This document shows positions 8,101 to 34,443 of a stretch of DNA of 43,904 bases, piece by piece (the first letter of the stretch is position 1; each line of letters opens with the position of its first letter). The notes beneath the pieces are model-generated. The model ran no database searches and had not been told where the DNA came from. It worked only from the letters and a program-made list of their open reading frames with translations. The stretch comes from Chrysochromulina tobinii (lineage: Eukaryota): assembly GCA_001275005.1 (NCBI GenBank), contig JWZX01003311.1:1-43904 (forward strand). The letters run 5' to 3'. Both the position numbers and the translations under genes were made by a program.

Positions 8101-11100
8101 ATGGGCGGCGCAGCCACGAAGGTGGCGCCAAATCCTGACGGAGGCGTCGAGGTGCGCACGCCCGACACGCTCCAGTGGCAAGACCCGACGAGGATCTTCA
8201 AGGAGGTTGACGTTGACAGCAACCAGAGCATCTCTTCCGATGAGTTGAAGAGCGCATTGCAAAAGCAAGGCTACGACGACGTGGTTTTCGCAACCCTGAT
8301 GGGCGAGCTCGACGTCGACTCGGATGGCTGCATTGCATTCGACGAGTGGCGCAAAGGTTTCTATGCGAGTAGCTTTGTCCACGTCAGGGCGCCGGCCGCC
8401 GAGGACTTTGCCGACCTGCACATGCGAACATACGGCGGTGGGGCGGCTGCACCATACCCACATGGTACTGTGCAGTGGGGCGGCTGCACCATCGCGGAGA
8501 CTGCCAAACGGGCCATCACTGTCGCACAGCTGGAGCGCGTGTACTCGCACATTGATCGGCGGTGCAAGCCCGAGGGGTGGGCCGACAAGAGTGGCAACCA
8601 AAGGACACCCGGCACCGTCACCCTCTACGACGCGGCGCGCTTCGTCATCAAGCCGGCGACGTACGTCAAGCAGTGCTCCTTCGTGGAGCTCATCGCCTTC
8701 GGAGAGCAGGTGCCGCTCTACTTTGTGAGCCACTGGTGGGGCGAATCAGTTCTCGATTTTGTGAAGTGCCTCAAGCAGCACGCTGTCGATCGCGTATTGG
8801 GCGTCGACAGCCCCTACTGGGTCTGCGCGTACGCCAACAACCAGTGGAAGCTCGACGATGAGATTGGGGGCTCACTTGAGGAGTCCTCGTTCCGCAAGGC
8901 GATGAAGCTCTCGTTCGGCACCGTCACCGTCCTTGATGAGGGTGGCATCACCTTCTCTCGAATCTGGTGTGGCTATGAAATCTTTACGAGCCTTGCTGGC
9001 GACAGTCACAAGACGTACGACGTGTACACGTGCCCCAAGCAGGGCGGGGCTGTCGGCCTCGTTGAAGGTCTGAGCGCTGGAGATAAGGACGCGGGCGCCA
9101 AGCAGAAGCGCGAGTCTGCTTTTCCGCTCGAGCGTGTGCGCCTCGACATCCAGCTGCAGTCGGCGCAGGCCTCTGTGGAGGCAGACCGCAAGGCCATCCT
9201 CAACGCGATTGTCGGCGCGGCTGCCGACGCGGAGCCGCCCAAAGAGCATGCGAGCTATACACGGCTGAACAACATGCTCGCTGGCCGATTTGCCGCAGGC
9301 ATGGTACGCACCGTCATCGCACGAGGCAAGAAGCTTGACCCGTACTTTGCTGCCATCAAGGCGTCCGCGGCCACGTCTCTTGTCATCGATCTCTCAAATC
9401 TGATAAAGTGCACCGACAAGGAGCTGAAACTGCTCACGGCGGCACTGCCCAATTCACTCGAGTCGCTCAACTTGCAACTCAAGGGCTCTAAGGCCACGGA
9501 GGAGGGCGTCACAGCTCTCTTCAAGCACGTGTGCAACCTCCCGCGGATGCGACGCCTCGAATCGGATGCTCTCACTTCGACGCACATGCCGCTCGTGATG
9601 AAGATGGCCATGCTTGAGGAGTTCCCAGCTAGGGGGCGTTTGTTTCCTTGTGCGATGGCTCTCATCAATGCGGCAGCAAAATGTGCAGCTACTCTCAAGT
9701 TTCTCGACGTATCTCTCGACTCTCGTTTCAGAGACGGCGCTCCTGCTGGTCCAGCGGGTGCTGCGGCTCTTGCTCTTGGGCTCGCTGCTAATAGCGCGCT
9801 GACGAAGCTGTCCCTGGCGTCGACCTTTTTGGGGGAGGAGGGCACCAAGGCCATCTGCGAGGCTCTCAAACAGAACAAGACGCTCAAGGAGCTCGATATG
9901 TCTGGTTGCGACAACATTGGACGGGCAGCAGGCGCTAAGCATGTGGCAGACATGCTTGGCGTCAACGGCGCGCTGACGGAGGTGTGCTGGGCTCTAGCCC
10001 AGATGTGCTCCCACTTGCACTGACATCTGGAGGTCCCTCATGCATAGGTGAACTTGGATGGGTTTGCTCTTCCTGTCAAGAAGCTCCAGGGCACCGATCC
10101 CGTGGAGACGCTCGACCTCTCGGGCAAGAAGCTTGGCGTTGCCTCTGCGGTTGTGATCGCCTCCTTGATTTGCGCCAACGGCGGGCTGATGAGCCTGGAC
10201 CTCTCCCACAACGATCTCTGCAACACCTTCGGCGGCACCTACACTGCAGAGGGCATCACAGCGATTGCCGACGCTCTGGGTGCATTGACGTCCGTCGACC
10301 TGAGGGGCAACTGGCTCGGGGACGAGGGTTGGGGCGCCATCTTTGCCGCCATCTGCGGCAACAAGGACAGCAAGATCATTTCTATGGATGTGTCCGGCGA
10401 GAACATCGGCCCGGCTGGTGTCAAGCTGATCGCCGAGGCGCTCCGCACGAGCGTCACAGGCGCATTGACGTCCGTCGAGCTCAAGGGCAACAAGCTCGGG
10501 GACGAGGGATGGGGCGCCATCTTTGCTGCCATCTGCGGCAACAAGGACAGCAAGATCATGTCTATGGACGTGTCCGGCGAGAACATCGGCCCGGCTGGTG
10601 TCAAGCTGATCGCCGAGGCGCTCCGCACGAGCGTCACAGGAGCGCTGATGAAGGTACGCTGAGCTTGCAGCTCAGGTGTGCTCCCACTTGCACTGACATC
10701 TGGATGTCTTCTTGTGCACAGGTGAACTTGGATGGGGTGAACTTGGATGGGTTTGCTCTCCCTGTCAAGAAGCTCAAGGGCACCGATCCCGTGGAGACGC
10801 TCGACCTCTCGGTCAAGAAGCTTGGCGTTGCCTCTGCGGTTGTGATCGCCTTCTTGATCGGTGTCAATGGCGGGCTGACAAGCATCGACCTCTCCGGAAA
10901 CGAGCTGTGTGGCATCTGGACTGACGGCTACAGCAAACAACAAGGCACCTACACCGCAGAGGGCATCACTGCAATCGCCGACGCCCTGCGTGTTAATGGT
11001 GGGCTGACGAGCCTCAACCTCAGCTACAACCAGCTGTGCGGCCTCGATCGTGATGGGCGTGGAACTTACACTGCAGAGGGGATCACAGCAATTGCTGACA

Positions 11101-16345: not shown

Positions 16346-19300
16346 TTACGGCAGCCTCGTCTGCACGAGGGAGACGCCGGCGTTCGACGAGGACAGGGTG
16401 CCTTCACACCACGCCCAGCATCCCTTGCTCAGCGACGGCGCCGTACGCTCACCATGGGGGAACGCGTAACGGCACTGCTCGAGACCTCCCTCAGGCGGAC
16501 CAGCCTCGCTTCCAAACCGAAGGGCACACGGCGCGGCTGGGGCGTCGGCCGCTCGCAGCCCAGCGCTCAGCACAGCGCCCTCGGCCGGTACACGTACCGG
16601 CAGTTGGAACTTGGCGCTCGCCCTCCAGAATTGGTGCAGCTGCACGCGACGCGCCACCTCCGCCGCCTTGCCCTTTCGACGGTCGGCCCCTACCCATGGA
16701 AACGGTTCGAGGCAAAAGGACACGTCGTTCGTCCTCAAGACGGCGCCCGAGGCAGCGCCCGACGACGTGCCCGTGCCCGCCACGGCGCCACGCGTGGTCC
16801 AGCCGAGCCCGGGGGGCAGCTCAAAGTCCACAAGCTCCTGGTGCAGCAGGCCGTTATCATTTGAGCTCGCTGCGAGCACGACGGTCTGATGGGCCGGCGA
16901 TGGCAGAGGGGGGTAGATGAGATCAGGGCCAATCTGAGGCAATCTGAGGCAATCAGTGGCACTCAGTGACAATCAGATGGGGGGAGATGCGATCAGGGCC
17001 AATCTGAGGCAATCAGAGAGAGACTCTGAGGCACTCTGAGGCATTCCCACCTGATGGCCCAGGATGCATGCGAGGCACTCCGATGCATGCGAGGCACTCC
17101 GATGCATGCGAGGCATTCCCACCTGATGGCCCAGGATGCATGCGAGGGCCGCGATCAGACGGTCCCACCCGAGCCCATTGCCAATCCCACACACTCCCCA
17201 GATCCAAAACAGGGCATAGCGCTGCGCGCTGCTCAGTCGAGGGCGCTTGCCGACATGGTGAGTCCGGTTGGTGCCGCCGCGGCTGGCCTCGCGTGTGGCC
17301 GTTGGCTTGTACGTGGCCGGTGACGTGGCCGGTCGAGGCACGAGGGAGAGGAAGGCAGCGAGCACCTGATGAGGGATGCAATCATCAGCATCAGCATACA
17401 ATCATCAGCATGCAACCACGCGCATGCAACCACGCGCATGCAACCACGCGCATGCAACCACGCGCACCTCATCCACCGCAGCCTCGCGAGCAAAGCTGGT
17501 CCAGTAATCAAGCAGCTTGTGGAATCGATGAGCGCCGCCCGTCCGCCCGCAAGGGTTGCTCGCGAGCAGTGCGGCAGCGAGGTTGGCTCCGGGATTGACG
17601 CTCGTCGACTGTGGAGAGCGCTGTGGGGAATGGCCTGCCACAGCGGCCGCGCTGAGCCCGAGGCGTGCAAAGAGAGGGTGGCGGCTGAGGATGGTAATGG
17701 CGCTCGCGTTGCGCTCGCCTGATGAGGGAGATCATCAGAGGCCATCAGAGGCCATCAGAGGCCATCAGAGGCCATCAGAGGTCATCAGAGGTCATCAGAG
17801 GTCATCAGAGGCCATCAGAGGTCATCAGAGGCCATCAGAGGTCATCAGAGGCCATGAGGGCGCTCGCCGAGGACAGTGATGAGGGAGATCATCAGAGGTC
17901 ATCAGAGGTCATCAGAGGTCATCAGGGCGCTCGCCGAGGACAGTGATGAGGGAGATCATCAGAGGCCATCAGAGGCCATCGACAGGCCATCAGGGCGCTC
18001 GCCGAGGACAGTGAGCATCTCCACGATGGCGGTGCCCTTGTTCATGGAGGCGAAGGGGGCCGTGGCCCGCAGTGCAACCCCCGTGCCGCGCCATACGTTG
18101 GCAAAGAGCCCACAGATGGGAGGGCATTGGTCGGCGTTGAGGACGCCTCCCCACTGCTCGATCTCGACCAGATCTCCGTCGGCGACCTCGAGCAATCTCG
18201 CCAGGGAGCTCTCGGCTCGTCGGGATGCATGCACGTGGACGCGAGAGGGCGAGCTGGCGCGAGTGGAGGAGGGGGGCGCGTCCGTGGGCAGGTCGGTGAT
18301 GGAGAGCACGCGATGCGGCAACCAGATCGTCTTGCCTGCCCACGACGACGCGTACGCCCACGACGGCGCCGAAGGGGACGTCACGACGGAGGGAGTGTCC
18401 GATACAGCGCTCGCGCCCGATACAGCGCTCGCGCCCGAGACGGCGCCGTCGACGAGGGGTGCGCTCTCGACGGCCAGTCCGATCGGGTACAGGGGATAGC
18501 GCACCAGCGCAAGAGGAGAGGTCCACGAGGGTGTCGGCCCGGTACGGGCTCCATAACTGGAGTGTAACAACGGCGCGCCGAGGACATCGGTACTGTCGGC
18601 TGAGCGCTGAAGGAACACAGCCACCGGCTGCGGATAACGGAAGAAATGGCTGCCGCTGAACGTATGCAGCGCGGCACCGGCACCAGCACCAGCACCAGCA
18701 CCGGTCCCATTTTGTGCTCCGATGGCGTAGAAGGCACCGGCGGGCCTGTGGGGAAGTTGGGGGCAGGGGCTAGTGCGACCCACCTGTGGGGAGACGCAAG
18801 TGGGCGCCGTGGTGAGCACTTGCATGCGGGCGGGCCTGTGGGGAAGTTGGGGGCAGGGGCTGCACCGGTAGCGGAGGGCGAAGCCCGGCCGTGTCGCAGG
18901 CGTACCTGATGAGGGAGGCAATCATGGGTCATCAGAGGCAATCATGGGAGTTCGGCCGTGTCGCAGGCATACCTGATGAGGGAGGCAATCGGTCGTCCTC
19001 AGTCAGTAGAGGCAATCGGTGGTCCTCAGGGCAGGCAGAGGCCATCAGAGGCCATCAGAGGCCATCAGAGGCCAGCAGAGGCCAACTGTGTCAGCTGTGC
19101 TGGCCGCATGCATACCAATAATCCAATTGCTCATAGATGCGCGAGAGGGTCGTTGACGAAACCTCGGCCAATTGCATGCGGGCGGCCGGATACGTGGCGA
19201 CGAGGTACCGGTAGTGCTTGGTTGCATGCGCCGAGGGACTGGTTGCATGCGCCGAGGGACTGGTTGCATGCGCGGCCTCAGAGAGGCGACGAGCCGTGGC

Positions 19301-22300
19301 GGAAGCTTGACGAACCGCGTCGGAAGCTTGACGAACCGCGTCGGGCGTCGACGGGTGGGCGCCGTGTTGGGCGGGGCTCCCACGGGCGCCGTAACGGGCG
19401 CGCGCGCCTCGTCGAGGATTGCGGGGCTTCTTGGGCGGAGGGGCGCCCATTACGGCGCCGCCCACGACGGCGCCGCCCGCGACGGCGCCGCCACTCAAGG
19501 TGCCCAGGGCGACGCGCGGCGCACGACGGCCGCTCACGTTGAGCAGACGCGACGGCAGGGGCGGTGCGGCCTCGATGGGCTCGTCAGATGAGCGGCCAGA
19601 TTGCAATCTGGGTCCAGATCGCAATCTGGTCGGGTAGAGGCGGAGATCGTGCATCTCGAGCACCGAGATGTAATCTGCCCAGTCCGCCGCCCATCCGGCC
19701 GTTGTGGGCCACAGGCGGCGCGGGAACGGGCGGACGAGTGAGCCGTTGACGAAACGGCGCGGGCCGTTGACGAAACGGCGCGGGCCGGCCTCGAGTGAGC
19801 CGTTGACGAAACGGCGCGGGCCGTTGACGAAACGGCGCGGGCCGGCCTCGGAGCGCAACGAGATTGTGACGAAATCGAACGGGTCGGGATCCGCATCGAT
19901 GTGGGGAATGATCGGCCGACAGCAGATCGGACCTGTAATGAGAGAGGTCAACAGGGGAGGCCATCAGGGCTGATCAGGGAGGCCATCAGAGAGGCCATCA
20001 GAGGGGCCCTCAGAGAGGCCCTCAGAGCGGCCACCAGATCGAACCTGGGGGCTTGAGCAGCTCCGGGTGCGTTTCGTCAATGAGTTGATGCAGTGCGAGC
20101 AGCCGCACGTCGCACCGCTCATAACAGATGCATGCAAACTTGGCCCACGAGAACGAGGCAAACTTGCACGTGGGACAGGCCGCAGCGCAGTGGCGCTTGC
20201 AATCGGACACGCCTTCGATGGCGGCTCGCAGTCCGTCGGGGGCGATGGCCACCGGGTAGGCGCAGCCGGCAGGCTGCTTGGCAAGGGAGGAAGACGACGG
20301 AGGTCAGTGGCAATCACGGGGTCATCGGAAGTCATCAAGAGGTCATCAGGAGGTCATCAGCAGGCCATCATGAGGTCATCAGCAGGTCATCAGCAGATCA
20401 TCAGCAGGTCATCAGCAGGTCATCAGCAGGTCATCAGCAGGTCATCAGCAGGTCATCAGCAGGTCATCAGCAGGTCATCAGCAGCTCATCAGCAGCTCAT
20501 CACCTGCTTGGCAGGGCAGATCGCGAGCGAGGCCTGTGGATTGCTTATTTTCCCAATCTGCGACGCCATCTTCCTCTGCCAATGCATCGGCGCCACATCG
20601 ACGTCACAACGGCCGTAATAGGTGGCATGGGCCGCCATCTCCGCCGCACGATCGCTCCATCGCTGCGCCGCTCGGAGCGTGCGATCTCCCGCGATCTCCC
20701 ATAGCGTTGTGGTGGGCAGATTTCGCTCCTCCGCGACGGCATGCAGCGCTGTGGGAAGAGGCTTGGAGGATGCATTGGAGGAGGGCGCTGTGGTGGGCAG
20801 CGCTGTGGTGGGCAGCGCTGTGGTGGGCAGCGCTGTGGGAAGAGGCTTGGAGGATGCATTGGAGGAGGAAGGTGCCGATGGTGTAACCTTTGGGCCCAAA
20901 GCCGCCGCCGCACTCGCCTCCGCCTGCGCCGTCGCCGTTACCTCCGCCTGCGCCGTCGCCGTTACCGCCGCCTGCGCCGTCGGCGTCCAATTCGCAACTT
21001 GAGCGCCATGATGAGCACCAAGAGCCCCATGACCATATATGGAAGCACCGTCGGGCGGCCCTTCCACAGCCCCTTCCACAGGCCCTTCCACAGGGGGGAC
21101 GCCTTTCCACGCAGTGAACGCGAAGAGCTTCGCAGCGCCGCAGAGGACGAAGCGCAACTGCACCTTGATCGCCCTCGGCAGCGTCGCACTCGGCGCCGTG
21201 TCGGGCGGCCCCTCCGAGGAGGAGCCTGCGCGCCGTGCTGGGCGCCAGCGGAGCACTGCGGCCGTTGAGTCGTCGACTACCGGTACGGAGCGCAGCAGGG
21301 AGCGCACCGGCGCCCGCGACGGCGCTCGAGAGTGCGTCTGCTCTTGACCGCCGCCGCCGCCGCCGCCGCCGCTGTTGCTGCTGCCGCTGCTGCTGTTGCT
21401 GCTGCTGCTGTTGCTGCTGCCGCTGCTGCCGCCGCTGCTGCTGCTGTTGCTACCGCTGCTGCCACCGCGGCTGCCAGTACATGCCTTGAGCACCTGTGGG
21501 GTGAGAGCGCCGTGGTGAGCACATGCATGCTCGCGCATGCTCGACTCCCAGGACAGGCCCTGAGTCAATCAGAGTCCATCAGAGTCAAGCAGAGGCAAGC
21601 AGAGTCAAGCAGAGGCAAGCAGAGTCAAGCAGAGGCTAGCAGAGGCAAGCAGAGGCAAGCAGAGTCAAGCAGAGGCAAGCAGAGTCAATCAGAGGCCATC
21701 AGCACCTCCGCAAACAGTGCGGACGCTCCATGGGCCGGCGCTGCGCCGCCGGTAGCGTGCGAGGCGCCGTCCTGGGCGGACCCGTGCCCCTCAGCGTGCC
21801 GAGGCTCGTGTCCGAAACCGACGTTCACTGTGAAGTAAAAGGGGCCGTCCGCGCCGAGCTGGGCAAGTTCAAGCGGCTTGGTGAGCACTTCGGTGCACTG
21901 GCGGCCTGGAGCTGCGGCGAGATCGGGCTCATGACGAACCCCCGCGAGCCGATGCCGTTTCCACACGGCGAGCCCGATCGCCATCGGCGCCTTTCGCGTG
22001 TACCTGTGGGGAAGAGGCGAGGGCGCCGTGGTGAGCACTTGCATGCAGGGATCGCCATCGGCGCCTTTCGCGTGTACCGACGCTCGTGATACGTCGCCCG
22101 CCCCTCGTAATAGAGAAGATGCTCACCTGATGAGAGAGGTCATCAGAGGTCATCAGAGCTCATGCAGAGGTCATCAGAGGTCATCAGAGCTCACCGCCCT
22201 CCGTCAGCAACGTCGAGGCCGGGATCACAATCCCGTGGTCGAAAGGGCAGCAAAGCTCGTCCAACGGCAACAGCTCGGGCAACGGCGCGTCAGAGGAGCC

Positions 22301-24692
22301 GCAGACTGCCAGCCTCGCTTCTGGCCGTGCCGCCATGCGTGGCGCCGACATCTGCGCCCAAGTCTCACAATCCAGGCAGTACGGCCTCTTGCGGCACTCG
22401 CCGTGTGGGATTAGCTCGCTGCCCGAGTACACGAAGTCGGTGTCGAAGTGGACGCCATCGCGCGAGGTCGCGAGGTAGGTACGCATCACATCGTACGCGT
22501 AGGGTGGTCTCTCCTCCCTCGGGTTCATCAGCTTGGGCCACTCGAGTACGTTCAGCACGCCCACGTACAGCTTCTCCGTGGCCATCGGGGTCACCTGATG
22601 AAGGATGCAATCGGGGCGTCATCAGGGCGTCATGAGGGCGTCATGAGGGCATCATCAGGGCGTGGCCATCGGGGTCACCTGCAGAGAGTAAACTTGCCGT
22701 CGCAGGTGCTCGGCTTTGCCTTCCTTGTCAAAGATCCACCGAACGTCCTCCCGCAGACCGTTGACGAAATCCGCCGCCCGATGGAGCGACGCAATTGACG
22801 AGACCCGCACCCCACGCACCTCGCGCCACCAGTTCGGGTTTGGGTTTGGCGTGCCCGCCACGCCCGGCGGTACGGCCGCTGCCCACCGGTTGACGATGCG
22901 GTGAGCTCCCGTGACGAGATCGCGGTAGATGGCGTTGGCCGTGTCGCTGCCTGATGAGTGAGGCAATCAGGCGCTCTCAGGCGCGCTCAGGCGCACTCAG
23001 ACGCACTCAGTGGCACACGCACCTAATCGGAGGGGCTCCGGCCCACTTGCATGCTGATGACAGGCGCACTCAGTCGCAATCAGTGGCACACGCACCTAAT
23101 CGGAGGGGCTCCGGCCCACTTGCATGCTGATGACCCAGGTCGTACTGGATGCGCCATCTCGAGCAGAATGAGCACTCGGTCAGAGGGCATCGATGCCAAT
23201 CAGACCCAATCAGAGCCATTCAGAGCCATTCAGAGCCATCAGACCCAATCAGCCATCGGACCTGGCGCCAGGTAAGTCCATCGGCCGAGTAGCCCAAGCA
23301 CGTGCTCTCCCAAGTATAGGTGCGCTCGCCGTTGAAGAGTGGAGCGGCGACCCAAAGCTGACGTGGCGGCGGCGCACCACGCTTGTACCTGTGGGGAGAG
23401 GGCACGCGGTGGTGAGCACTTGCATGCGACCCAAAGCTGACGTGGCGGCGGCGCACCACGCTTGTACCTGGTGAGAGTTTCAATCCGCATTCAATCAGAC
23501 CTCTCAGAGAGGCCATCAGCGGCCATCAGAGAGGTCATCAGAGAGAGGCCATCAGGGAGGTCATTGGAGGTCATCAGCGGACCATCAGAGGCCATCAGAG
23601 GCCATCAGAGGCCATCAGAGGCCATCAGAGGCCATCAGAGGGTCGTCAGCGGTCATCCACGTACAGCCAAAAGGGCGGCCACGGGGTGTGCCCGAGCCTA
23701 TCGCAAGTGAACGCGGCCTTGTAACGCTCGTCAGGAGGCGCCTGCTCATCCCGCATGACGGTGAGCGTATCCTGAGCGAGCTCGCGCAGCTGCGTCATCA
23801 GCCCTGTCATCTCACCCCAGGGGTACTGGGACGCGTACGGCGGAGACGGAGGCGCTGGTGGCTGACGCCACGTCCTGGATGCTGCCGCGGCTGCGGCGGC
23901 GGCGGCGGCAGCGGCGGCAGCAGCCCTTTCAGTACGCACCCAAGCCGCGCGAATGAGAGAAGCGTTGGCTTCCGGCGCCCACAGGAGAGGGCGCGGCGGC
24001 GAAAAGTCGAGTCCGTCGGACGACTCCGAGTACAGCGTGCGCGACTGCCCAAGCCACGCTCGGAACTTGCCATTCTCCTTGAGCACGGTCCCAGGCATGC
24101 CGAAGCCTTCGCGTGGCACCGGATGAGCCATGCGTCCAACCTCGGGCTGTGAACGATGAGCCATGCGTCCGACCTCGGGCTGTGAACGGCGATCGCTCGA
24201 GCTGGGCGCGCTGGTGTTGGTGGTGGTGTTGGTGGTGCGCTGGCGCGCTCCGCGCTGCTTGAGCTCCATGCGAAAGCTCGCTCGCGCCTTGCGCGGGCGC
24301 TCGAGCTCGAGCACCACTCCCGGTGCCCACCAGTCGAGAACCGCCTCATCCATGAGCACGTGCGGCGCGCCCGATCGCAGCTCGAGCTCGTGCGAGCGCG
24401 CCGCAGAGCGCGCTGCCTCTTGGTTGATGCACAGGGTGCAATTGGCCATGTGCGACACATCCGGCTCGTACAACATCGGCTGGGGCTTGAGCGCGGCCAT
24501 CTTGCGTGGATCTCGTAGAGGTACCGCGCCGGCCAGCAGCGCCTCGCGAAAGGTCGAGTCGCGCAGCCGTTGCGCGGCGGTTGGCTGCGGATGGCGGATC
24601 AGCGCTACAGGCGTGCGATGGCAGGGTGGGAGCGCGCTCGAGATCGTACGCAGCTCGTCCTGGAAGGTCTTGCTGGCGAGGAGTGCCGACAT
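16346..24692 (-). CDS. Large 15-exon protein (~2037 aa) with an N-terminal glycoside-hydrolase-like beta-propeller region; remainder unknown
   Basis: Exons 24692-23665, 23388-23262, 23144-23096, 22950-22679, 22594-22195, 22126-22078, 22003-21706, 21493-20504, 20273-20045, 19932-19116, 18905-18866, 18783-18003, 17718-17468, 17365-17123 and 16885-16346 join in consistent phase (6114 nt). Asp-box-like repeats SSDGLDF, SADGLTW and SRDGVHF, plus HLLYYEG...IGLAVW, resemble beta-propeller glycosidase-like proteins. It could be more than one gene. Confidence 0.65.
16886..17122 (-). repeat. Repeat-built intron (CTGATTGCCT/GCATGCATC-type arrays) containing a second copy of the exon end and donor
   Basis: CAG|GTGGGA...CCCATCAG boundaries. 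GCCTCGCATGCATCCTGGGCCATCAGGTGGGAATGCCTC recurs inside the intron. Removal joins ILGHQ|TVVLAASS in frame. Confidence 0.7.
17366..17467 (-). repeat. Family A repeat intron with a 15-bp GCGCGTGGTTGCAT-type array
   Basis: GAG|GTGCGC...GATTGCATCCCTCATCAG|GTGCTC. Removal joins AAVDE|VLAAF in frame. Confidence 0.75.
17719..18002 (-). repeat. Family A repeat intron with GC donor and three cassette units
   Basis: G|GCGAGC donor, CTCTGATGRC arrays and CTCCCTCATCAG acceptor. The junction sequence CACTGTCCTCGGCGAGCGCCCT is repeated twice inside the intron. Confidence 0.7.
18784..18865 (-). repeat. Family B cassette intron
   Basis: Contains GCATGCAAGTGCTCACCACGGCGCCC...TCCCCACAG. It is preceded by a copy of AGCCCCTGCCCCCAACTTCCCCACAGGCCCGCC from the downstream exon. 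Confidence 0.65.
18906..19115 (-). repeat. Double Family A intron (internal acceptor at 18973)
   Basis: Two successive GATTGCCTCCCTCATCAG ends, each followed by GTAYGCCTGCGACACGGCCG. Confidence 0.75.
19933..20044 (-). repeat. Family A-like repeat intron
   Basis: Donor side CAG|GTTCGATCTGGTG versus downstream exon CAG|GTCCGATCTGCTG. Degenerate CTGATGGCCT units. Confidence 0.7.
20274..20503 (-). repeat. Intron made of an 11-bp CTGATGACCTG array
   Basis: About a dozen tandem units. The acceptor end TGCCAAGCAG duplicates the end of the upstream exon. Removal joins CPAKQ|PAGCAYP. Confidence 0.7.
21494..21705 (-). repeat. Composite intron: decamer array (CTCTGCTTGM) plus Family B 3' cassette
   Basis: GAG|GTGCTG...GCATGCATGTGCTCACCACGGCGCTCTCACCCCACAG|GTGCTC. 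Confidence 0.72.
22004..22077 (-). repeat. Family B cassette intron with 29-bp flanking duplication
   Basis: GATCGCCATCGGCGCCTTTCGCGTGTACC occurs at 21976-22004 and 22050-22078, either side of the cassette. Confidence 0.8.
22127..22194 (-). repeat. Family A repeat intron
   Basis: G|GTGAGC, (TCTGATGACC)n, then CTCTCATCAG|GTGAGC. Confidence 0.8.
22595..22678 (-). repeat. Family A repeat intron with 21-bp exact flanking duplication
   Basis: CGTGGCCATCGGGGTCACCTG at 22577-22597 and 22661-22681. Confidence 0.8.
22951..23261 (-). repeat. Two repeat-type introns (22951-23095 and 23145-23261) around a 49-bp exon
   Basis: CTGA-containing decamer arrays and a GATTGCCTCACTCATCAG acceptor. The exon YDLGHQHASGPEPLRL restores the phase. 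Confidence 0.6.
23389..23664 (-). repeat. Family A array intron extended by a Family B cassette with a 45-bp duplication
   Basis: 45-bp direct repeat at 23347-23391 and 23426-23470 around a 34-bp Family B insert. An older acceptor CTCACCAG ends at 23468. Confidence 0.75.
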
Positions 24693-24763
24693 GTTCGGGT
24701 TTTGAAGTTGCGAGAAAAGGCACGAAATAGAATTCGGACGGCAAGATTTCCTTGGCGACCAAC

Positions 24764-25605
24764 ATGCCGCTCCTCGTGCCCAGTGCACGCCACAATTGCC
24801 GAGCGCCTTACGTACCCTCCTTCGTTCGCGCCAATGACTGGAAAGTCGCGCCGCCGCGCTCCGTCACGACCGCGCGCCCTCGCCTCTGCACGCCGAGCGA
24901 CCCAGCATCCGACACGCGAGAGCCCACTGCTCTGGTCTCACTCCCACCGTTCTGATCCTTCTCCCAATGCATTGCAGATCAGCCCTTCAAGGTCCCACGG
25001 ATGGATGCCAGCACGCTGCTCAAAGTCAAGCTGTGCGTGCCCGTTGTCGCACTCTCCTTGCCACTGCGGGCGCCCACCGTCACCCACTCGCCTCCCCATC
25101 CCTTTTCGCTCGCGCACGCAGGCTGAGCGAGTTTGCCACCATCCCGGTGCGCGCCACCGCGCGCTCCGCCGGCTACGACCTCTCCGCGGCGCACGACTGC
25201 ATCATCCCCGCTTGCGGCAAGGCCATTGTGAAGACGGATCTGTCGATCGCGTGCCCCGAGGGCACGTACGGGCGCATCGCGCCCCGCTCGGGCCTCGCGG
25301 TCAAGAATTTCATCGATACGGGTGCAGGCGTCATCGACGCCGACTACCGCGGCCCAGTGGGCGTCGTCCTCTTCAATCACGCCAAGGAGGATTTTGCAGT
25401 GAAGCGCGGCGACCGGATCGCGCAGCTGGTGCTCGAGCGGATCGTGACACCCGACGTGGTGGTCTGTGACGACCTGGACGACTCCGAGCGCGGCGCTGGC
25501 GGCTTCGGATCGACGGGCGTCGCTGCGTTGCCCAAGCCGGAGACACCAATTCCCTTGGAGAATGAGCCGGCCAAGTTTGAGACGCCTGCGACGCAGATCC
25601 AGTGA
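24764..25605 (+). CDS. DUT: dUTP diphosphatase (trimeric dUTPase); intron 25033-25121, possible first intron 24783-24977 (alternative start ATG 25001)
   Basis: All five dUTPase motifs: [29 protein letters not shown] and [10 protein letters not shown]. Splicing gives [19 protein letters not shown]. The 5'-most exon is less certain. Confidence 0.93.
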
Positions 25606-26635
25606 GGACTCTAGGAGCGGCGAGGAAGAGGCCGCGCCGCCGCGATGTGCATGTGCACGTGCATCCGAGCTGCTCTCGTCTTGCGTGTGCGTGCGGCCAG
25701 CGCGCGCGCGCTAGAGGGCGAGCGAGCGGAGCAAGACCAAAGTGGCCGCGGCGCGTGTCTGGAGCGGGGAGCACAACGTTGATTACTGCTGATGTAACAG
25801 CCAGTGACTGAAAAAGTGGCGGACAGCAGCGTTCTATACGACTCGTCCCCCCGCACACACAATCAGAGCGCTAGTCCAGTAGTCCTAGAGTGAGGCGGGC
25901 CACGCGCCTGTGGCGGGCATCATGCTGGCGGGTTACTGGCGGGACCGTAAGCGTCTAAGGCGGAAGCCGGAACGGCTCGGGGGGGGCGGCTGCGGGCCGG
26001 GGCCGCCCGCACCCCTGGAGCATGCACCTGGACAGCCGGCAGACCCGTGCACAGTCCGGAGCTCGGTCGTCGCACGTCGGTTCCGCGACCGCCGCGGCAG
26101 TGAACCAGTGTTAAGAACCGTGAAAGTCGTCTACGTACCGGCGCGGTCGAGGGACGGTCGTGCAAATAATTTTAATACACGTCGTCCTACGTATTTTTTT
26201 TGGCTCGAAACCCCCCGTCGATCTTCTTCACCTGTGGTCTCTGTCGCCGCGCGCTGTGGTCTGTCGGCAGTCTGTGACTGTATAATAACGAACTCTGTGT
26301 CTCTCCCGCGACCTTCAGTGACCGAGACAGTGCTCTGTTAGCTGTCTCGCTCGTGACAGATCTCGCCAGGATCTCCTGATCGCCCGCCTGAGACGCGAGT
26401 GCGATGTGCCGCCCTTGATCCGCCCCCACGCCCCTCGGCTGTGGACTCTGTACAGCGAGGAGACCAAGCGCCGTGCCGGGCGCGATCGGCGAGGAGACCA
26501 ACTTCGAGAAGACGCACTCGCCTCCGCGCCTCTGGCGGCTGCGTGGCGAATGCCGGCCACGGCGCCATTGACGAAGCCTCCACGCCCGCCACGGCGCCAT
26601 TGACGAAGCCTCCACGCCTCTGCGGCCGACTGGCC

Positions 26636-27956
<1,321 letters not shown>

Positions 27957-28562
27957 TGGCGTCCGGCTTCGCGGGCACGCACACTCGCTGCGCCGCGTCC
28001 TCTTTTCATGCCGACCTTTCTTGTGAGTTTCATGCGGCACGTTCGATCATGAGCGATGAAACGAAACACGCCACGTACGTGCGTGCTCGCGCTCATGGGG
28101 CCGCTAGTGCGGTCCCGTTTTCAAAACATTCCACAAACACATGTTGCAGACCGTTTACTACCTTCCAAAGTTTACTTGTATACGATGTCATGACCGTGCG
28201 CTTGGAATAGGAGCGGGTCCCTGAACTCGGAAAGAGCACATCGAGCCTTCGAGGTCCACCCTGCCCTACCGTTGTCGTCGAGTTGAGAAAATGAGAAAAG
28301 TGACGTGGCTGTCCGCCACGTCACTCTCCGACTGCCGTACACGTCATCGGTGCGAAGCGATGCAGGCAGCCCCATTTGCGTTGCCTCCGACCCCCCCGGG
28401 GTGGCACGAAGGGGCCTCGCCGGCCGCGCACGCACCCTCGAAAGGCCCTTCGTCGAGCCTGCTAACCGCGTGTCCGCCGCGCGCGTCTGCCGCGCGCCCC
28501 TTCCCGCACGCCGTCGCGCGCGCTCACCCGCATCTCTCCATCCACTCGCATCAGGCTTCAGG

Positions 28563-30058
28563 ATGCAGATTCTCTCGGTGCTTGCGCTGCTGCTTGCGGC
28601 CGTCACGGCCGAGGTCTACTTCGAGGAGAACTTCAGCGGCGACTGGGAGTCGCGCTGGCAGGCGGGCACGCCTCCCGGCAAGGAGATGGGCAAGTTTGCG
28701 GTCACGAGCGGCAAGTGGTTCGTGGATGAGGAGGCGGAGAAGGGCCTCACGTGCACGGAGGACATGCGCTTCTACTCGATCACGAGCAAGATGCCCAAGA
28801 TGGCCTCGTCCAAGGGCAAGCCCCTCGTCGTCCAGTTCTCCGCCAAGGTGCAGAACCACCAGTACGCGTACTGCGGCGGCGGCTACATCAAGCTTCTGCC
28901 CGACAAGGCCGACTACTCCAAGTTCAGCGGCGACGACGAGTACAACGTCATGTTCGGCCCCGACCTGTGCGGGTACGTGGCCGCATGCGCTCGCGCACGC
29001 GCGCCTCGAAGACGTGCCCGGGGTGGAGGAGTGAGGAGGGCCCGACCGTGCTTGCAAGCACGCCGTGCCCCGTCTTGTCCCCTCGTCGCCGCCCTCTTCG
29101 GTCCTTCGGCGGCCCCCCCCTCCCGCTCGTCTTGCGCCGCTCGCTCACCCGCGCCTGTCGCCTGCGCCTCCGGTGCCTCTCGCGTGCGCAGCTACGATGT
29201 GTCGCACATCCACGCCATCTTCAACCACAAGGGGAAGAACCTGCTGAAGTCCGAGAAGGTAAGCCTCGAGTTCTCGAGATGACTGATTGCCACTTCTTGC
29301 CACTGATGACCTCTGATTTGCCACTGATGACCTCTGATTGCCTCCCTCATCAGGTGAGCCTCGAGTACTCGGACAAGAACGAGTACACCCACCTGTACAC
29401 GTTCAGCTTCAAGCCAGACGGCACGTACGAAATCTTCTTCGACCAGAAGTCGAAAGCCTCGGGCAAGATTGTGGAGGACTGGCCGCTGCCCAAGCCCACG
29501 ATTGACGATCCGGAGGACAAGAAGCCTTCCGACTGGGTGGATGAGCCCGAGATGAACGACCCCGAGGCGAAGAAGCCCGACGGGTACGACGACATCCCGG
29601 CGCAGATCCCCGACCCCGACGCGACCAAGCCTGCGGACTGGGACGACGAGGACGATGGAGAGTGGGAGCCCCCCTTGATCGACAACCCGGAGTTCAAGGG
29701 CGAGTGGATTGCCCCCAAGGTCGCGAACCCGGCGTACAAGGGCGAGTGGAAGCCCAAGCAGATCGCGAACAAGGACTACGAGGAGGGCGTGCAGCTGGCC
29801 GCGTATGACTCGACCCACGTTGGCTTCGAGCTCTGGATCGTCAACAACGGCACCATCTTCGACAACATCCTCGTTACAGACGACCTCGACTACGCGATCG
29901 CGCAGGGCACGAAGCTGTGGAAGCCAACGGCCGATGCCGAGAAGGAGAAGAAGGAGGCTTGGGACAAGGCAAACAAGCCGGCCGAGGACGCCCCTGCGGG
30001 CGACGATGATGAGCCGCCGCCCGAGGGCGAGGACGAGGAGGAGAAGGACGAGCTGTAA
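28563..30058 (+). CDS. CALR: Calreticulin (introns 28973-29191 and 29259-29353)
   Basis: Signal peptide, EVYFEENF, CGGGYIKL, MFGPDLCG, P-domain repeats (IDDPEDKKPSDW, GEWKPKQI) and an acidic tail ending KDEL. Confidence 0.96.
29259..29353 (+). repeat. Family A repeat intron inside calreticulin
   Basis: AAG|GTAAGCCTCGAGTTCTCG...CTGATGACCTCTGATTGCCTCCCTCATCAG|GTGAGCCTCGAGTACTCG. Confidence 0.85.
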
Positions 30059-30623
30059 GCGCGCATGCATTGACGAACCCGTGGGCGATTCACGAGCCCG
30101 TGCGAGCGAGGGCAGGGGCAGATACTCGAAAGGGGGAGGATCCTCTCTCAATCGCTCGGGTCGCTCGGGGCGCTCGGGCCGGGCTTTAGGTGAGGTGTGC
30201 GGCCCGTGGGCTGCCGCGCAGTCGGTGTAGATGGCGCCCGGCGAGCGGCGCGCGCGAGGCGCGAGATCACAGTGGGGGGGCGGGGGGCGTGCGTCCGACG
30301 TGGTACGTGCGGAGAGTCTCTGATGGAACTGATGCTGTCTCGTGGAGTGTGTGTGGTGCCGGTGAATCAGCTATGGCCCTATGGCGGTGTGGCTATGCTT
30401 TATGTGTGATCTTGTCATCAAACATCTCCGTCTTCGACATGGTCACTTCGACTCATGCTCATCGTTCGGCTAACATCGTTCATCCGACATTGTTCCGAAT
30501 TGCTTGTTCCCCAGACCTGACACGGCTCACGACGTTTTGGGGCGGAAACGCAGTAATCGTTCTTTATGCAAAGGCAGCGAATCGGCGTTCGGTCAGTTCG
30601 AGGAGCGTTCGTAGTTTTGATAC

Positions 30624-31403
30624 ATGTACGCTACGGGAAAGCCGAGCGGCGCGATGGGGCTTGTTCTGAAAAATCTCCCGCAATTAATGTCGTGTATTAT
30701 GTTGGGCCAACAAGTCCGGTCCCGGTCCCTAGCGCCACCATGCCGCGCAACCATCATCGCGTGCGATGCTAACTCTCCCGTGATAGAGCCTTCCGCTTCC
30801 GTCGAGGAGATGCAACGCTGGGCCAATTTTGAGGAGCAATTTGATGTGCGGTCGCTCGCCGGTGTCTCCGCACCTCTCGGATTCTGGGATCCTGCCGGAT
30901 TCAGTACGTCTGCGTCACAGGGACGGGTCCGATTCTATAGGGAGGTCGAAATCAAGCACGGCCGAGTCGCAATGCTCGCTGCCGTCGGCTTTCCTCTTGC
31001 GGAGCAATTTCATCCGCTCTTTGGCGGCAATATCGACTTGCCTTCTTACATCGCCTTCCAGCAGACGCCGCTGCAAACGTTCTGGCCCCTGGTGCTCGCG
31101 GCAGTGTCGGCCTTTGAGGTGCGAAGCATCTCATCTTTCGACTCACCCATCTCTGCGAAAGGCTTCTACGCGTTACTCGCGGATGACCAAGCGCCACCAC
31201 TCCAAGTCGAGCAGTCCCCGTTCACGATCAAGGCTGACCACATCCCAGGCGACCTGGGCTTCGATCCGCTCGGCCTTCAGCCCCAAAGTAAGACGGAGCT
31301 GTTGGCCATGCAGACCAAAGAGCTGAACAATGGCCGATTGGCGATGATCGCGATGACTGGAATGGTCGTGCAAGAGCTCGTGACGGGGGCCAAGCTTTTC
31401 TGA
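30624..31403 (+). CDS. Chlorophyll a/c light-harvesting protein, Lhcx/LI818-like (start uncertain: 30624, 30654 or 30687)
   Basis: Motifs LGFWDPAG, REVEIKHGRVAMLA, HPLFGGNIDLPSYIAFQQTPLQTFW, PGDLGFDPLG and KELNNGRLAM. Confidence 0.92.
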   Translation: MYATGKPSGAMGLVLKNLPQLMSCIMLGQQVRSRSLAPPCRATIIACDANSPVIEPSASVEEMQRWANFEEQFDVRSLAGVSAPLGFWDPAGFSTSASQGRVRFYREVEIKHGRVAMLAAVGFPLAEQFHPLFGGNIDLPSYIAFQQTPLQTFWPLVLAAVSAFEVRSISSFDSPISAKGFYALLADDQAPPLQVEQSPFTIKADHIPGDLGFDPLGLQPQSKTELLAMQTKELNNGRLAMIAMTGMVVQELVTGAKLF

Positions 31404-31884
31404 GCCAGTCGACACTAGATTATGGGTGATACTTTGGCCGTTTGTTCCGATAAGCCGGCGCGCCCACTAGCACAGCTGGATACTGGTGTGGCGTCACACT
31501 GTATATATTGGGATAACGACGCCCCCTAGCACAGCTGTATACGATAGCGCTGTGTCGTGTGGCGTCTTTTAGACTTTTGAGTTTTGTAGCGTTGTACGTC
31601 GACCTTGCGCGCCCCTCCTCTACTTCGTATACATACGAAAATCGACTCGTCTGCGCTCCGAGTATTTACCTAACGCCTTGATCGTGCTGCGTGTGGAAGC
31701 GTGTGATCAGTGATGAGCTACTCGCTACTACAAGCGTGTGCGTGCCAGAGCAAAGATATCAAACACAAACATATCAAACACAAACTTTAGCCGCGTCCCG
31801 GTGGGACGGACGGTCGCTTCGTGCCTTTGAATTCGATCGGATGTCCGTCGTCCCGACCACGCACCGTCCACCGATCCCCCGGTG

Positions 31885-34443
31885 CTATTCGCACGGGCAC
31901 ATGCACAGCCGCAGGCACAGCGCGTCGCGCATGCCGCAGAGGGAGAGCGGGCCGGCAGTGCACCAGCGCGGCAGCAGGCTCAGCAGGAAGAACGGTAAGC
32001 CGTCGTCGTGTGATGGCAACCGCTCGAGCGGCGGCGCCGTCTCGAGCGGCGGCGCCCAGCACGGCGCTCTCTCGAGCGGCGGCGCCCAACACGGCGTCGA
32101 GCTCGTCGCCGTCGACTTCGTTTGTTCGCGCGCCGCCGCTCGCCTCGCTACCCGCCGTTCAGCCTTCTCTGTCCGATGAGCCCCAAGCGACGTGACAGGC
32201 GACTGTGAATGTGAATGTGAATGAGCCCCAAGCGACGTGACAGGCGACTGTGAATGTGAATGTGAATGAGCCCCAAGCGACGTGACAGGCGACGTGGGCT
32301 TCTGAGGCTCAGCTGGCGCCGCAGTTGGGCGAGAGGCAGGCGGCGCAGCATCGAGCTCCTTACGTGCCTCTGGGATATGGCTCACTGCTCGCCTCTGCTG
32401 CTCGGCTTTGCCTATTCGGGGGGCGGGGAGCTTCTCCCGGGAGCTCTCCCGCCTCTGCCTCTCTGCCTCCCTCGTCTTCGTCTGCCTCTCCGTCTCAAGT
32501 GCGTACGTCGCCGACGCCGGCTGTGCCGAGGCCGGCTGTGACGGCTGTGACGAAGCCGGCAGTGAAGAAGCCGACGGTTGTGACGGCTGTGACGAAGCCG
32601 GCAGCCCCCGCAGATACAAAGGCTGCCCTCCCGGCCGCGGCGGCGGCGGCGGCGGATGGAGCTGCTGCCGCACGCTGGCATACAGCACTGAGCTCCGGAC
32701 GGCGTGAACGACCCACGAGAAGGAGCCGCCGCAATTGACGTGCCGCCATGTAACCGACGCCCACAACGGCGCGTGTACCGGGTCTTCAAAGGGGGGCGCC
32801 ATGGTCTTTCGTGAGACGGCGAGGGCGACGAGCCGACCTGCCGGACGGAGCACGCGCGCGCCCTCGTGCATCGCCGTGTGGTAGAGATGGCGCAGCCCGC
32901 CGCCGCCGCCTCGCACCTTGTGCGTAATCCCAAAGGGGAGGTCCACGATGAGCACATCGACGCAGGCGTGGCGCAGGCCAATCTGGTGCGCCGACCAGAT
33001 GCACGGCAGAACCCCGCCTGCCTGCGCGGTGCCCGTACGGCGCCGTATCGGGCGGTTCGCCGCATGCCACGCAAGCTCGGCGGCGCTCAGCGGCGCGGGG
33101 AGCGCCGTCGCGGGCGGTGGCGGCGCCGTCTCGGGCATCGTGTTACCTAATTTGGGCGGAGGCGTCGTCTCGGGCGGGGCGAGCCCTCGTCGCTCTGCGA
33201 TGGAGGCCAGATCTCCGAGCGCGAGGTACGGCGCGCCGTCCCGAGCGGCATGTGCATGCGCCGTGTGAAGGTGGCGACCGTTGGCGGCAGCTTGCCTCAA
33301 CACGTGCTCGTCGATGTCCCCGGCGATGGCACAGCCGCAGCAGGTTTGGGCGGCGGCCACGAGTGGCACGGTGCCAATCCCACACCTGATGAGGGGCGCA
33401 ATCAGAGGTCATCATAGGTCATCAGAGGCCATCAGAGGCCATCAGAGGCCATCAGAGGCCATCAGAGGCCATCAGAGGCCATCAGAGTGGCACGGTGCCA
33501 ATTCCGCACATCGGATCGAGCACCACGTCCCCCGGCGCCACGCCCGCCAGCCGCAGCATCAGATACGCTGTCGATGAGCGAAGCCGCGCGGTGCAATCCG
33601 CGTAGGGTAGTAGGGGTCGGGGCTCGGGCGCCATGCTGCACTTCATGGACTTACCTGATGAGGGCGACCATCAGAGGTAATCAGCGGTCATCAGAGGTCA
33701 TCAGATGTCATCAGAGGTCATCAGAGGTCATCAGAGGTCATTAGAGGTCATTAGAGGTCATTAGAGGCACTCAGAGGATTGCACTTCATGGACTTGCCGC
33801 TGATGAGATTGATGCCGACGAGCAGCTCGCCCTGCAGCAGGAACGCGACCACCTCCAGGTCGAATCCCGTCAGGTCGACACGTAGGCGACGCTGCAAGTG
33901 CACCGCGGCTCCGATGGCCTGCGCCAGGTCGACCGACTTGAACGCATGCATGCCATCACGCACCGCGTTCGCTCGGAAGCTGAGCGCATCGTCAGCGGGC
34001 GCTGCATGCAGCGGCTCCAGTCGGCAGTGGCGCCACGTGCGTACGGCGCTCGCCCAGCGGTCCGCCGCTGCGCCCATCACCTGCTTCGTCAGCGCGACGG
34101 CTTCCGCAGTAAGCGGCAGCCCTGACGCGAATGCGATCGGCGCCAAGAGTGCGGATATGCACGGGAGCAGCGTGAGCGCCATGCGCTGTGTGCGCCAGCC
34201 GTCGGCGTCCAATGGCCGTGGCAGCGAGAAGAGCAACTTTCCAACACCCGCTTGACCCGGAAAGACATGGCCCGGCACCGAGACGTCGCAGTTGGCACCC
34301 CAATTATCGCTACGCGGCGGAACGCACACGGGCGTGATGCTGGACACAGGTATGCCAAGCTGCTGAGCGATGCACGCGGCTGCCAGATCCTCGAACCCGC
34401 CCGGGACGCAGACGACGTACTCGACCGGGTGCTCGTCGGCCAT
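31885..34443 (-). CDS. THUMP-domain RNA methyltransferase (THUMPD2/3, Trm14-like); exons 34443-33798, 33654-33510, 33385-31885
   Basis: N-terminal VPGGFEDLA and THUMP-like SFRANAVRDGMHAFKSVDLAQAIGAAV...VDLTGFD. Splicing creates the SAM motif VLDPMCGIGT. Also IVDLPFG and RVLRPAG. Low-complexity tail. Confidence 0.87.
33386..33509 (-). repeat. Family A repeat intron with 25-bp flanking duplication
   Basis: AT|GTGCGGAATTGGCACCGTGCCACTC, (TGATGGCCTC)n, then ...CCCCTCATCAG|GTGTGGGATTGGCACCGTGCCACTC. Confidence 0.85.
33655..33797 (-). repeat. Family A repeat intron with GC donor
   Basis: G|GCAAGTCCATGAAGTGCA...CCCTCATCAG|GTAAGTCCATGAAGTGCA. Confidence 0.8.

Follow-up and report, generated by a model that had tools for sequence, protein, structure and literature searches.

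Introns with long, variable exon duplications and shared inserts point to an apparently undescribed intron-gain system in Chrysochromulina tobinii

Contig JWZX01003311.1 of the freshwater alga Chrysochromulina tobinii (43,904 nucleotides; hereafter the window, the whole stretch of DNA analysed) carries three genes interrupted by 17 introns with related interiors and 3' ends. An original prediction, made from the sequence alone, held that an inserted cassette supplies the 3' splice site of these introns and a duplicated piece of exon their donor. The longest gene lies on the minus strand (16346..24692); removal of its 14 introns leaves a single open reading frame (ORF) of 2062 amino acids from 24692 to 16346, though at a few boundaries an equal alternative exists. 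Across the 8 exons scanned, no Pfam match to its protein exceeded the cut-off (the PAN match being weak, E 0.045), and an S-x-D-G-x-T-W run in it resembles an Asp-box. The second gene, calreticulin (28563..30058, plus strand; RNA joints, spliced frame and relatives), is open over 393 amino acids after splicing, falls in a 90% cluster that includes proteins named Chrysochromulina tobinii and C. parva, and has an ordinary intron (28973-29191) common to more distant relatives. The third, a THUMP methyltransferase (31885..34443, minus strand; spliced frame, profile match and homologues), is open over 763 amino acids once spliced. Removal of the introns by coordinate thus restores an open coding sequence in all three, including the THUMP motif DPMCGIGT, as had been predicted.

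Splice joints were collected from RNA contigs of four runs (15 of 47 joints listed). Among the joints listed, at least 9 of the 17 introns are joined (at least 8 of the 14 in the long gene, plus calreticulin 29259-29353), as are the three ordinary introns of the window; the predicted junctions are thereby confirmed for these introns, THUMP joints not being among those listed. One RNA piece begins at the boundary of THUMP intron 33386-33509 and continues into intron 33655-33797. Junctions are ambiguous by up to 29 nt in the cassette introns and by 1-2 nt in the three ordinary ones. Both calreticulin joints were present in RNA runs X11 and X15 and neither in DNA run X1; with ambiguity below 31 nt, this makes assembly collapse an unlikely source of the RNA joints.

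The inserts belong to two families. Family A consists of variable arrays built from ~10-nt units with a CTGAT motif, usually capped by CCCTCATCAG, and its copies have only a 20-nt end and the repeat units in common; family B ends in CCCCACAG. Inserts and exon duplications combine in three layouts, in which the exon copy provides the donor (layout I), both splice sites (layout II) or the acceptor (layout III). The five duplications on which the original prediction was built (21/21, 29/29, 45/45, 23/25 and 16/18 nt) are exact as claimed. Over the 17 introns, the donor copy measures at least 10 nt in 6 and 4-9 nt in 5; the proposed exon-copy structure thus stands for part of the set, while 3 introns have, at the acceptor, a repeat of the upstream exon's end and 3 are ambiguous.

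In the long gene (all minus strand), two introns are joined in 4/4 RNA runs: 22595..22678, an 18+3-nt perfect duplication with a family-A insert, and 22004..22077, a 28+1-nt perfect copy with a family-B insert and a donor without a preceding AG. The upstream exon of the former ends in CAG, so that AG/GT lies within the copy itself; upstream of 22077 the exon ends in CG and upstream of 33509, in the THUMP gene, in AT, confirming that AG is lacking at both. RNA joints also remove 22127..22194 (6+1-nt copy, family-A insert), 17366..17467 (4+2-nt copy, family-A end), 17719..18002 (GC donor, 8+1-nt copy, family-A arrays, 67-nt internal repeats), 22951..23095 (family-A end and internal 73-nt duplication, without exon-2 copy) and 23145..23261, a repeat array of III-like layout whose acceptor resembles the upstream exon end (4-nt exact back match); this intron gives RNA support to the III-like layout, layout II and III introns outside the window being predicted. 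Intron 23389..23664 (10-mer repeat array, 4-nt donor copy, frame) is skipped as one 276-nt piece in 3/4 runs. Within it, an old acceptor (23468) precedes an exon copy of 42 nt and a family-B end, and since the RNA skips it whole, the 45/45 copy is a second insert at an already existing acceptor and not, as had been thought, an intron of its own. The remaining introns are predicted from the frame: 21494..21705 (repeat array, family-B-like end, 5+2-nt copy), 18906..19115 (two family-A acceptors at 18973 and 18906, internal 20-nt exon copy), the region 18746..18865 (family-B ends, acceptors 18836, 18784 and 18746, boundaries uncertain), 16886..17122 (III-like, donor 17050 or 17122, 7-nt back match), 20274..20503 (layout III, a 10-nt copy of the upstream exon end forming the acceptor at 20274 or 20277) and 19933..20044 (decayed copy of 10/12 nt, repeat array).

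Calreticulin intron 2 (29259..29353, plus strand; joined in RNA, not in DNA) consists of a 16/18-nt copy and a family-A insert. The two THUMP introns (minus strand) are predicted: 33655..33797, with a GC donor, a 17/18-nt copy and a family-A insert, is present in 13/13 of the read-through proteins viewed (gene calls that ignore introns), and 33386..33509, supported by the spliced frame, lies within the DPMCG codons with a 23/25-nt copy, a family-A insert and a donor without a preceding AG.

A scan with the 20-nt family-A end gave at least 136 stretches from cultures and lake metagenomes, about 700 kb including the window with overlaps counted; the sample is seeded on family A and amounts to about 1% of the genome. 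Redundant overlapping loci and two stretches of 46% GC that are probably unrelated (L001 and L075) were dropped before counting, flanks exchanged among those sharing their first three bases served as the swapped control, and frame and coding statistics rest on a codon model from five window genes. An upstream copy of the downstream flank (score at least 12) accompanies 131/331 family-A and 18/32 family-B motifs, against 3% and 0% in the swapped control, so that the predicted excess of duplications over background holds well beyond the window. GT or GC comes after 185 of the 212 terminal acceptors, and 109 of them all have the copy; by gapped comparison, 94/212 have an upstream copy of the start of the next exon (score at least 12; control 0.5%). 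The 109 copy-bearing acceptors include 79 that follow unique exon sequence (copies of 8-55 nt) and 30 second inserts at existing acceptors. AG precedes the donor in only 32/79, which bears out for many cases the idea that the acceptor comes from the insert; it does not always do so, this being one of three layouts. Intron removal retains the best codon frame in 64/74 tested cases (control 0.45) and 67/74 read as sense-coding. The codon score is below zero for 13% of the sequence 3' of cassettes and 10% of exons, versus 92% of intergenic sequence. Within 5 kb of a seed, 42 acceptors are on the same strand and 0 on the opposite one, and neighbouring repeat blocks up to 1.5 kb apart share a strand in 164 cases and differ in 4.

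A layout-blind search recovered a flanking direct repeat (score at least 12) in 155/338 clean-flank repeat blocks (control 2.2%). The 166 blocks scoring at least 11 divide into layout I (60), II (39), III (18) and blocks without a layout (49), and in arrays without a family acceptor the upstream exon end is repeated (score at least 10) in 31 of 166 such arrays (control 0.3%). Duplications span 11-56 nt in layout I, 15-65 nt in II and 11-32 nt in III, with a detection floor of 11 nt and many shorter or decayed cases, and 49 of the 117 assigned ones are perfect. The frame is consistent in 46/55 layout-I and 10/14 layout-III cases (control 0.42). Intron length has a lower limit of 50-65 nt in each layout, and copy and insert lengths are anticorrelated (rho -0.49, n=39; rho -0.66, n=11), as a minimum intron length would produce. 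CTGAT stands 15-19 nt upstream of AG in 42/59 layout-I cases, and from this position and the YTRAY consensus we take the motif to be a putative branch site. Donor-improving changes in the intron copy show no clear excess.

A single cassette that always gives the 3' splice site does not fit these layouts. None of the layouts has a fixed insert 5' end (the commonest layout-I start is shared by 3/60), a fixed AG end is limited to the 60 layout-I cases, and layout II and III inserts (57/117) terminate within repeats, those of layout II (39/117) leaving 8-270 nt between the copies. With such variable 5' ends everywhere and no fixed end in II and III, the case for a mobile cassette of defined extent, or for target-primed reverse transcription (TPRT) in its plain form, is weakened; of the mechanisms put forward originally, break repair or template switching is the one that stands. 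The statement that inverted repeats are absent needs qualifying, as the start of a repeat unit and the family-A cassette end form a 7-bp stem; this stem is no fixed terminus, and two defined inverted-repeat ends are absent. A model with fixed terminal inverted repeats (TIRs) was rejected, insert starts being variable and the stem lying at no fixed terminus, and the variable duplications and ends equally support the earlier view that these are not TIR introners with a fixed short target-site duplication (TSD).

One element-based alternative, which we hold to be extremely improbable, is that the inserts are non-autonomous HUH elements akin to Replitrons or Helitrons, having one fixed end and leaving variable duplications. 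Replitron-1 inserts in an orientation-specific way with variable TSDs, one Replitron protein comes from C. tobinii (PMC10288648), and the stem at the family-A end would suit such an element; set against this are the lack of a shared terminal direct repeat in the inserts, two unrelated insert families, layouts II and III without a fixed end, and the tendency of Replitron insertions to avoid coding sequence, as reported in PMC9977147. Moreover, RT (reverse transcriptase), transposase and Rep domains were all absent from the 199/341 ORFs scanned in the sampled loci (142 shortest left out; <1% of the genome).

A second alternative is that a non-LTR (non-long-terminal-repeat) or Penelope-like RT inserts copies of intron RNA (lariat tails or pre-mRNA) at staggered nicks, the insert being a passenger like a short interspersed element (SINE); we consider this rather doubtful. 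Variable, long duplications such as those seen here are typical of non-LTR elements (PMC9977147), layout I combines a fixed AG end with a variable 5' end and short junction matches, the length of family B is near-fixed, placement solely in genes and in sense would suit an RNA template, and about 5% of classified introners are non-LTR (PMC12130899). Yet the one fixed 3' end in all copies that TPRT would leave is missing from 57/117 assigned cases, neither poly(A) nor a single tail is seen, the ORFs just described hold no RT, and retro-insertions would be expected commonly in intergenic DNA and in both orientations, which our codon-score proxy did not show.

Presence or absence of introns among relatives was read from the ends of read-through proteins, which reveal introns at protein level. 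Four sites in three genes appear filled in some strains and empty in others. At 22595-22678 (21/21), P0375 spans the upstream cassette to the downstream intron, unbroken here, and P0363 is likewise empty, whereas the intron is present in P0369, P0370 and P0372 (of the 81 cluster members, 15 were listed and 8 of these compared). Both P0375 (empty) and P0374 (probably filled) belong to the diverged allele class here. Calreticulin 29259-29353 is present in 17 read-through proteins, with a perfect copy in P0265, and absent from P0275, though intron 1 is recognisable there. At 29699..29700 (plus strand), P0132 and P0133 end and P0127 and P0129 start within a family-A cassette, implying a ~47-nt GC..AG intron with a ~14-nt exon copy in 4 filled alleles; 11 genomic-type proteins and the window, which holds a single copy, are empty. 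At 32916..32917 of the THUMP gene (minus strand), P0357 ends in repeat units, so that one strain appears to hold a repeat-array insert, and five others and the window are empty. The outgroups judged genomic from read-through or contig size (P0135/P0137/P0138, P0144, P0164 and the P0191 cluster) lack calreticulin intron 2, those covering 29699/29700 lack an intron there, and P0144 keeps the ordinary intron 1. Gain would be the simpler reading for 29259-29353, 29699/29700 and 32917/32916; site 22595-22678 is left unpolarised, because deletion between repeats yields the same empty allele. The calreticulin orthologues thus turned out as foreseen, and recent intron gain with long, variable duplications is supported. 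For THUMP, a search for longer relatives gave nothing, and the spliced protein aligns collinearly with homologues in the profile library, which may derive from DNA or RNA. Lake run X17 gave no long matching piece and hence no outgroup DNA, and a BLAST of spliced junctions among the loci for intron-less paralogues returned only self and array matches among those listed.

The same data could be read as old introns whose ends were merely remodelled by duplications, the empty alleles being precise deletions between repeats. Second inserts are indeed common (also at 23389-23664), arrays vary among strains, direct repeats permit exact loss, and filled and empty alleles mix in the diverged class at 22595. 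We nevertheless judge this reading unlikely, since outgroup genomic-type calreticulins lack both cassette introns (P0144 lacking intron 2 while having the ordinary intron 1), filled alleles are in the minority at 29699 (4 vs 11) and 32917 (1 vs 5), and 49/117 duplications are still perfect.

As to where the inserts come from, for 14/112 the best match within 2 kb is as good as, or better than, any in 1.1 Mb elsewhere, and by inspection separate neighbouring introns have unusual units in common at L030, L038, L053, L058 and L071. At L102, two introns at different exon sites 200 nt apart have a common 38-nt insert, with matches at both junctions, for which the best match elsewhere is only 21 nt. 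Repeat units lying 600-1500 nt apart are more alike than expected (p=0.002) while those farther apart are not, and family-B copies cluster weakly (21 pairs vs 12.2 expected, p=0.035). At the junction between copy and insert 5' side, overlap averages 1.7 nt vs 0.38 expected (n=37). Plain duplications also abound: 512 kb of sequence contains 192 perfect repeats of 10-70 nt in two copies, against 0 in a shuffle; 117/192 are in multiples of three, and some, in THUMP, vary among strains. In the orthologous introns L003/L005 and L041/L096 the numbers of repeat units and of copy-plus-cassette units vary by sample, their exons being ~97-99% alike.

Duplication, shared insert families, splicing of 9 window introns, sense coding placement, three layouts and junction matches are direct observations. 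As their cause we propose, with confidence that stands about level with doubt, that repair or template switching duplicates a 10-65-nt piece of exon and inserts a portion of some existing, often neighbouring, intron, and that splicing filters the products. A staggered break or slipped fork would make the exon duplication; a polymerase would then prime on 2-6-nt matches and copy the 3' part of an intron from DNA or nascent RNA, taking repeat units with or without the AG end. In exons, such products would survive only with a donor, a branch site, an acceptor and a length of roughly at least 50 nt. Each new intron might serve as a further template, giving amplification without a transposase of its own, and arrays could later grow, shrink and take second inserts. 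Templated inserts with re-priming (PMC5068794) and break-derived tandem duplications (PMC8355091) are known repair products. This repair reading covers the three layouts, the second inserts, the local templates and the background duplications.

Several observations weigh against it. Empty alleles could also come from deletion between repeats; 98/112 inserts match local DNA no better than distant DNA, repeat-unit similarity at 250-600 nt is not significant (p=0.28), and over their final 40 nt cassettes of the same locus show no added similarity (p 0.27-0.30). Layout II is frame-consistent in only 13/23 (control 0.42), and some of its assignments may therefore be wrong. Family B, a near-fixed unit of ~42-47 nt, is more like a small element. 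Finally, only 7/103 blocks have two non-coding-like flanks (a codon-score proxy, without annotation), and such scarcity outside genes is hard for untargeted DNA repair; it suggests that insertion is tied to transcription and leaves room for an RNA-templated or retro route. A further alternative is partial reverse splicing, in which a donor-like site in exon RNA or R-loop DNA receives the 3' end of an intron, and the resulting chimera is copied into the gene by repair. It would explain the exact AG/GT junction of layout I, the restriction to sense and to genes and re-insertion at existing junctions, and an R-loop model has been proposed for Micromonas (PMC4540971); but it predicts seamless whole introns, and we find long duplications, partial inserts and layout II and III junctions that are not splice sites, which makes it highly improbable. 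Going beyond the repair reading, it is possible, at somewhat worse than even chances in our estimation, that C. tobinii runs an ongoing, transposon-free and self-amplifying intron factory, in which duplications capture branch-point repeats and acceptors from existing introns, partly in cis and possibly via the nascent transcript, and which has produced thousands of introns.

Altogether, the system resembles repair-type gain with an introner-like shared source and is wider than the single-cassette picture. As in Daphnia-type gain by double-strand-break repair, exon direct repeats flank the introns, here with a repeat at the opposite intron end above background, strains differ in presence, and internal duplications follow; the Daphnia repeats are 4-12 bp with mostly unknown insert sources in the account of PMC4202315, whereas ours are 11-65 nt with two genome-wide families and partly neighbouring introns as sources. 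The use of a donor from the duplication and a carried acceptor is already described for introners with 4-8-nt TSDs: classes 4/5/6/8/10 of Symbiodinium and Polarella share the splice logic of layout I and spread as a family across unrelated genes, but are given fixed 3-9-nt TSDs, often TIRs, and defined ends (PMC9860276; bioRxiv 2020.10.14.339549); in our set the duplications and inserts vary in length and the 5' ends in position, and three layouts occur side by side. Among the features of DNA-transposon introners, we find splice-site co-option with the mRNA restored and, at the four sites above, presence/absence between relatives, but neither TIRs nor a fixed short TSD. Introner family 5 of a marine Chrysochromulina metagenome-assembled genome (MAG), compared by description only, has the same genus label and likewise no TIRs, but a 4-bp TSD, and it carries the donor and co-opts the acceptor (PMC9860276). 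Tandem genomic duplication of an AG/GT segment (PMC3443670; PMC3265369) takes both sites from the duplication as layout II does; here, unlike there, the copies are separated by an insert with branch-site motifs, which in layouts I and III also supplies one of the sites. Micromonas introners and fungal introner-like elements likewise occupy the coding strand of genes and are polymorphic among strains, but are presented as whole near-identical introns, with no long exon duplication in the descriptions concerned (PMC4540971; PMC3443670). In the haptophyte Emiliania huxleyi, fam24 (PMC12130899, row 1026) is entered as 'co-opt 5' carry 3'' with '10bp terminal direct repeats'; no other row of that table notes a 'direct repeat'. 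With 5 copies and classed Unknown, fam24 can be compared by description.

No account of the system was found in the open-access literature (subscription papers being outside the scope). We regard it as a real, active and apparently undescribed intron-gain system. C. tobinii was among the genomes screened in PMC9860276, whose listed introner rows hold only the marine MAG, and it received 0 families in the survey of PMC12130899; as it was screened yet scored zero, similar systems may be missed elsewhere. If our reading is true, screens that require end-to-end intron similarity would not see such introns. Gene models err at them: P0271 (calreticulin) stops inside the intron copy and P0343 (THUMP) keeps the duplicated residues twice, which may be why annotation-based surveys missed the family. 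In flanks more than 5 kb from seeds, cassette acceptors occur at 9 per 100 kb, which over a 59 Mb genome (PMC4580454) suggests, as a rough estimate, some thousands of copies, a large share where introns number ~1 per gene. Introner transposons have been called the sole mechanism able to explain intron bursts (PMC12130899); the system would, if the reading holds, be a distinct route to genome-wide bursts, visible as segregating alleles. Where new intron sequence comes from is an old question, and here target duplication, donor sequence and empty alleles are all open to inspection, in an alga that is culturable and has wild populations.

Further observations concern individual loci. A scan of viral contigs gave 1 match to family B and 0 to family A; the viral-collection contig L001 (501-550) ends in a family-B cassette with a similar duplicated segment upstream, and may be host DNA or a host-virus junction. 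P0380, a 51%-identical THUMP homologue, shows a repetitive read-through ~8 residues past the window intron site, perhaps from a distinct family of repeat introns in some other organism. Part of the GC-donor intron 33655-33797 (33655-33736) is kept in one RNA contig, reflecting slow splicing or pre-mRNA. In-frame coding repeats at 32176-32293 and 4870-4946 combine a duplicated segment with a GTGAAT/GTGAAC hexamer run; such a run also occurs inside a cassette intron (L019, near 502) and is possibly a third filler type kept as protein. Read depth over the calreticulin cassette in X1 is very high and was not used as copy number. Position 28830 is A in all culture runs compared (DNA and RNA) and G in the window, a strain difference or an assembly error. 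Introns 9982-10047 and 10654-10720 of a leucine-rich-repeat (LRR) gene, with putative boundaries, are similar to each other and unlike families A and B, and probably reflect duplication of an exon-intron unit.

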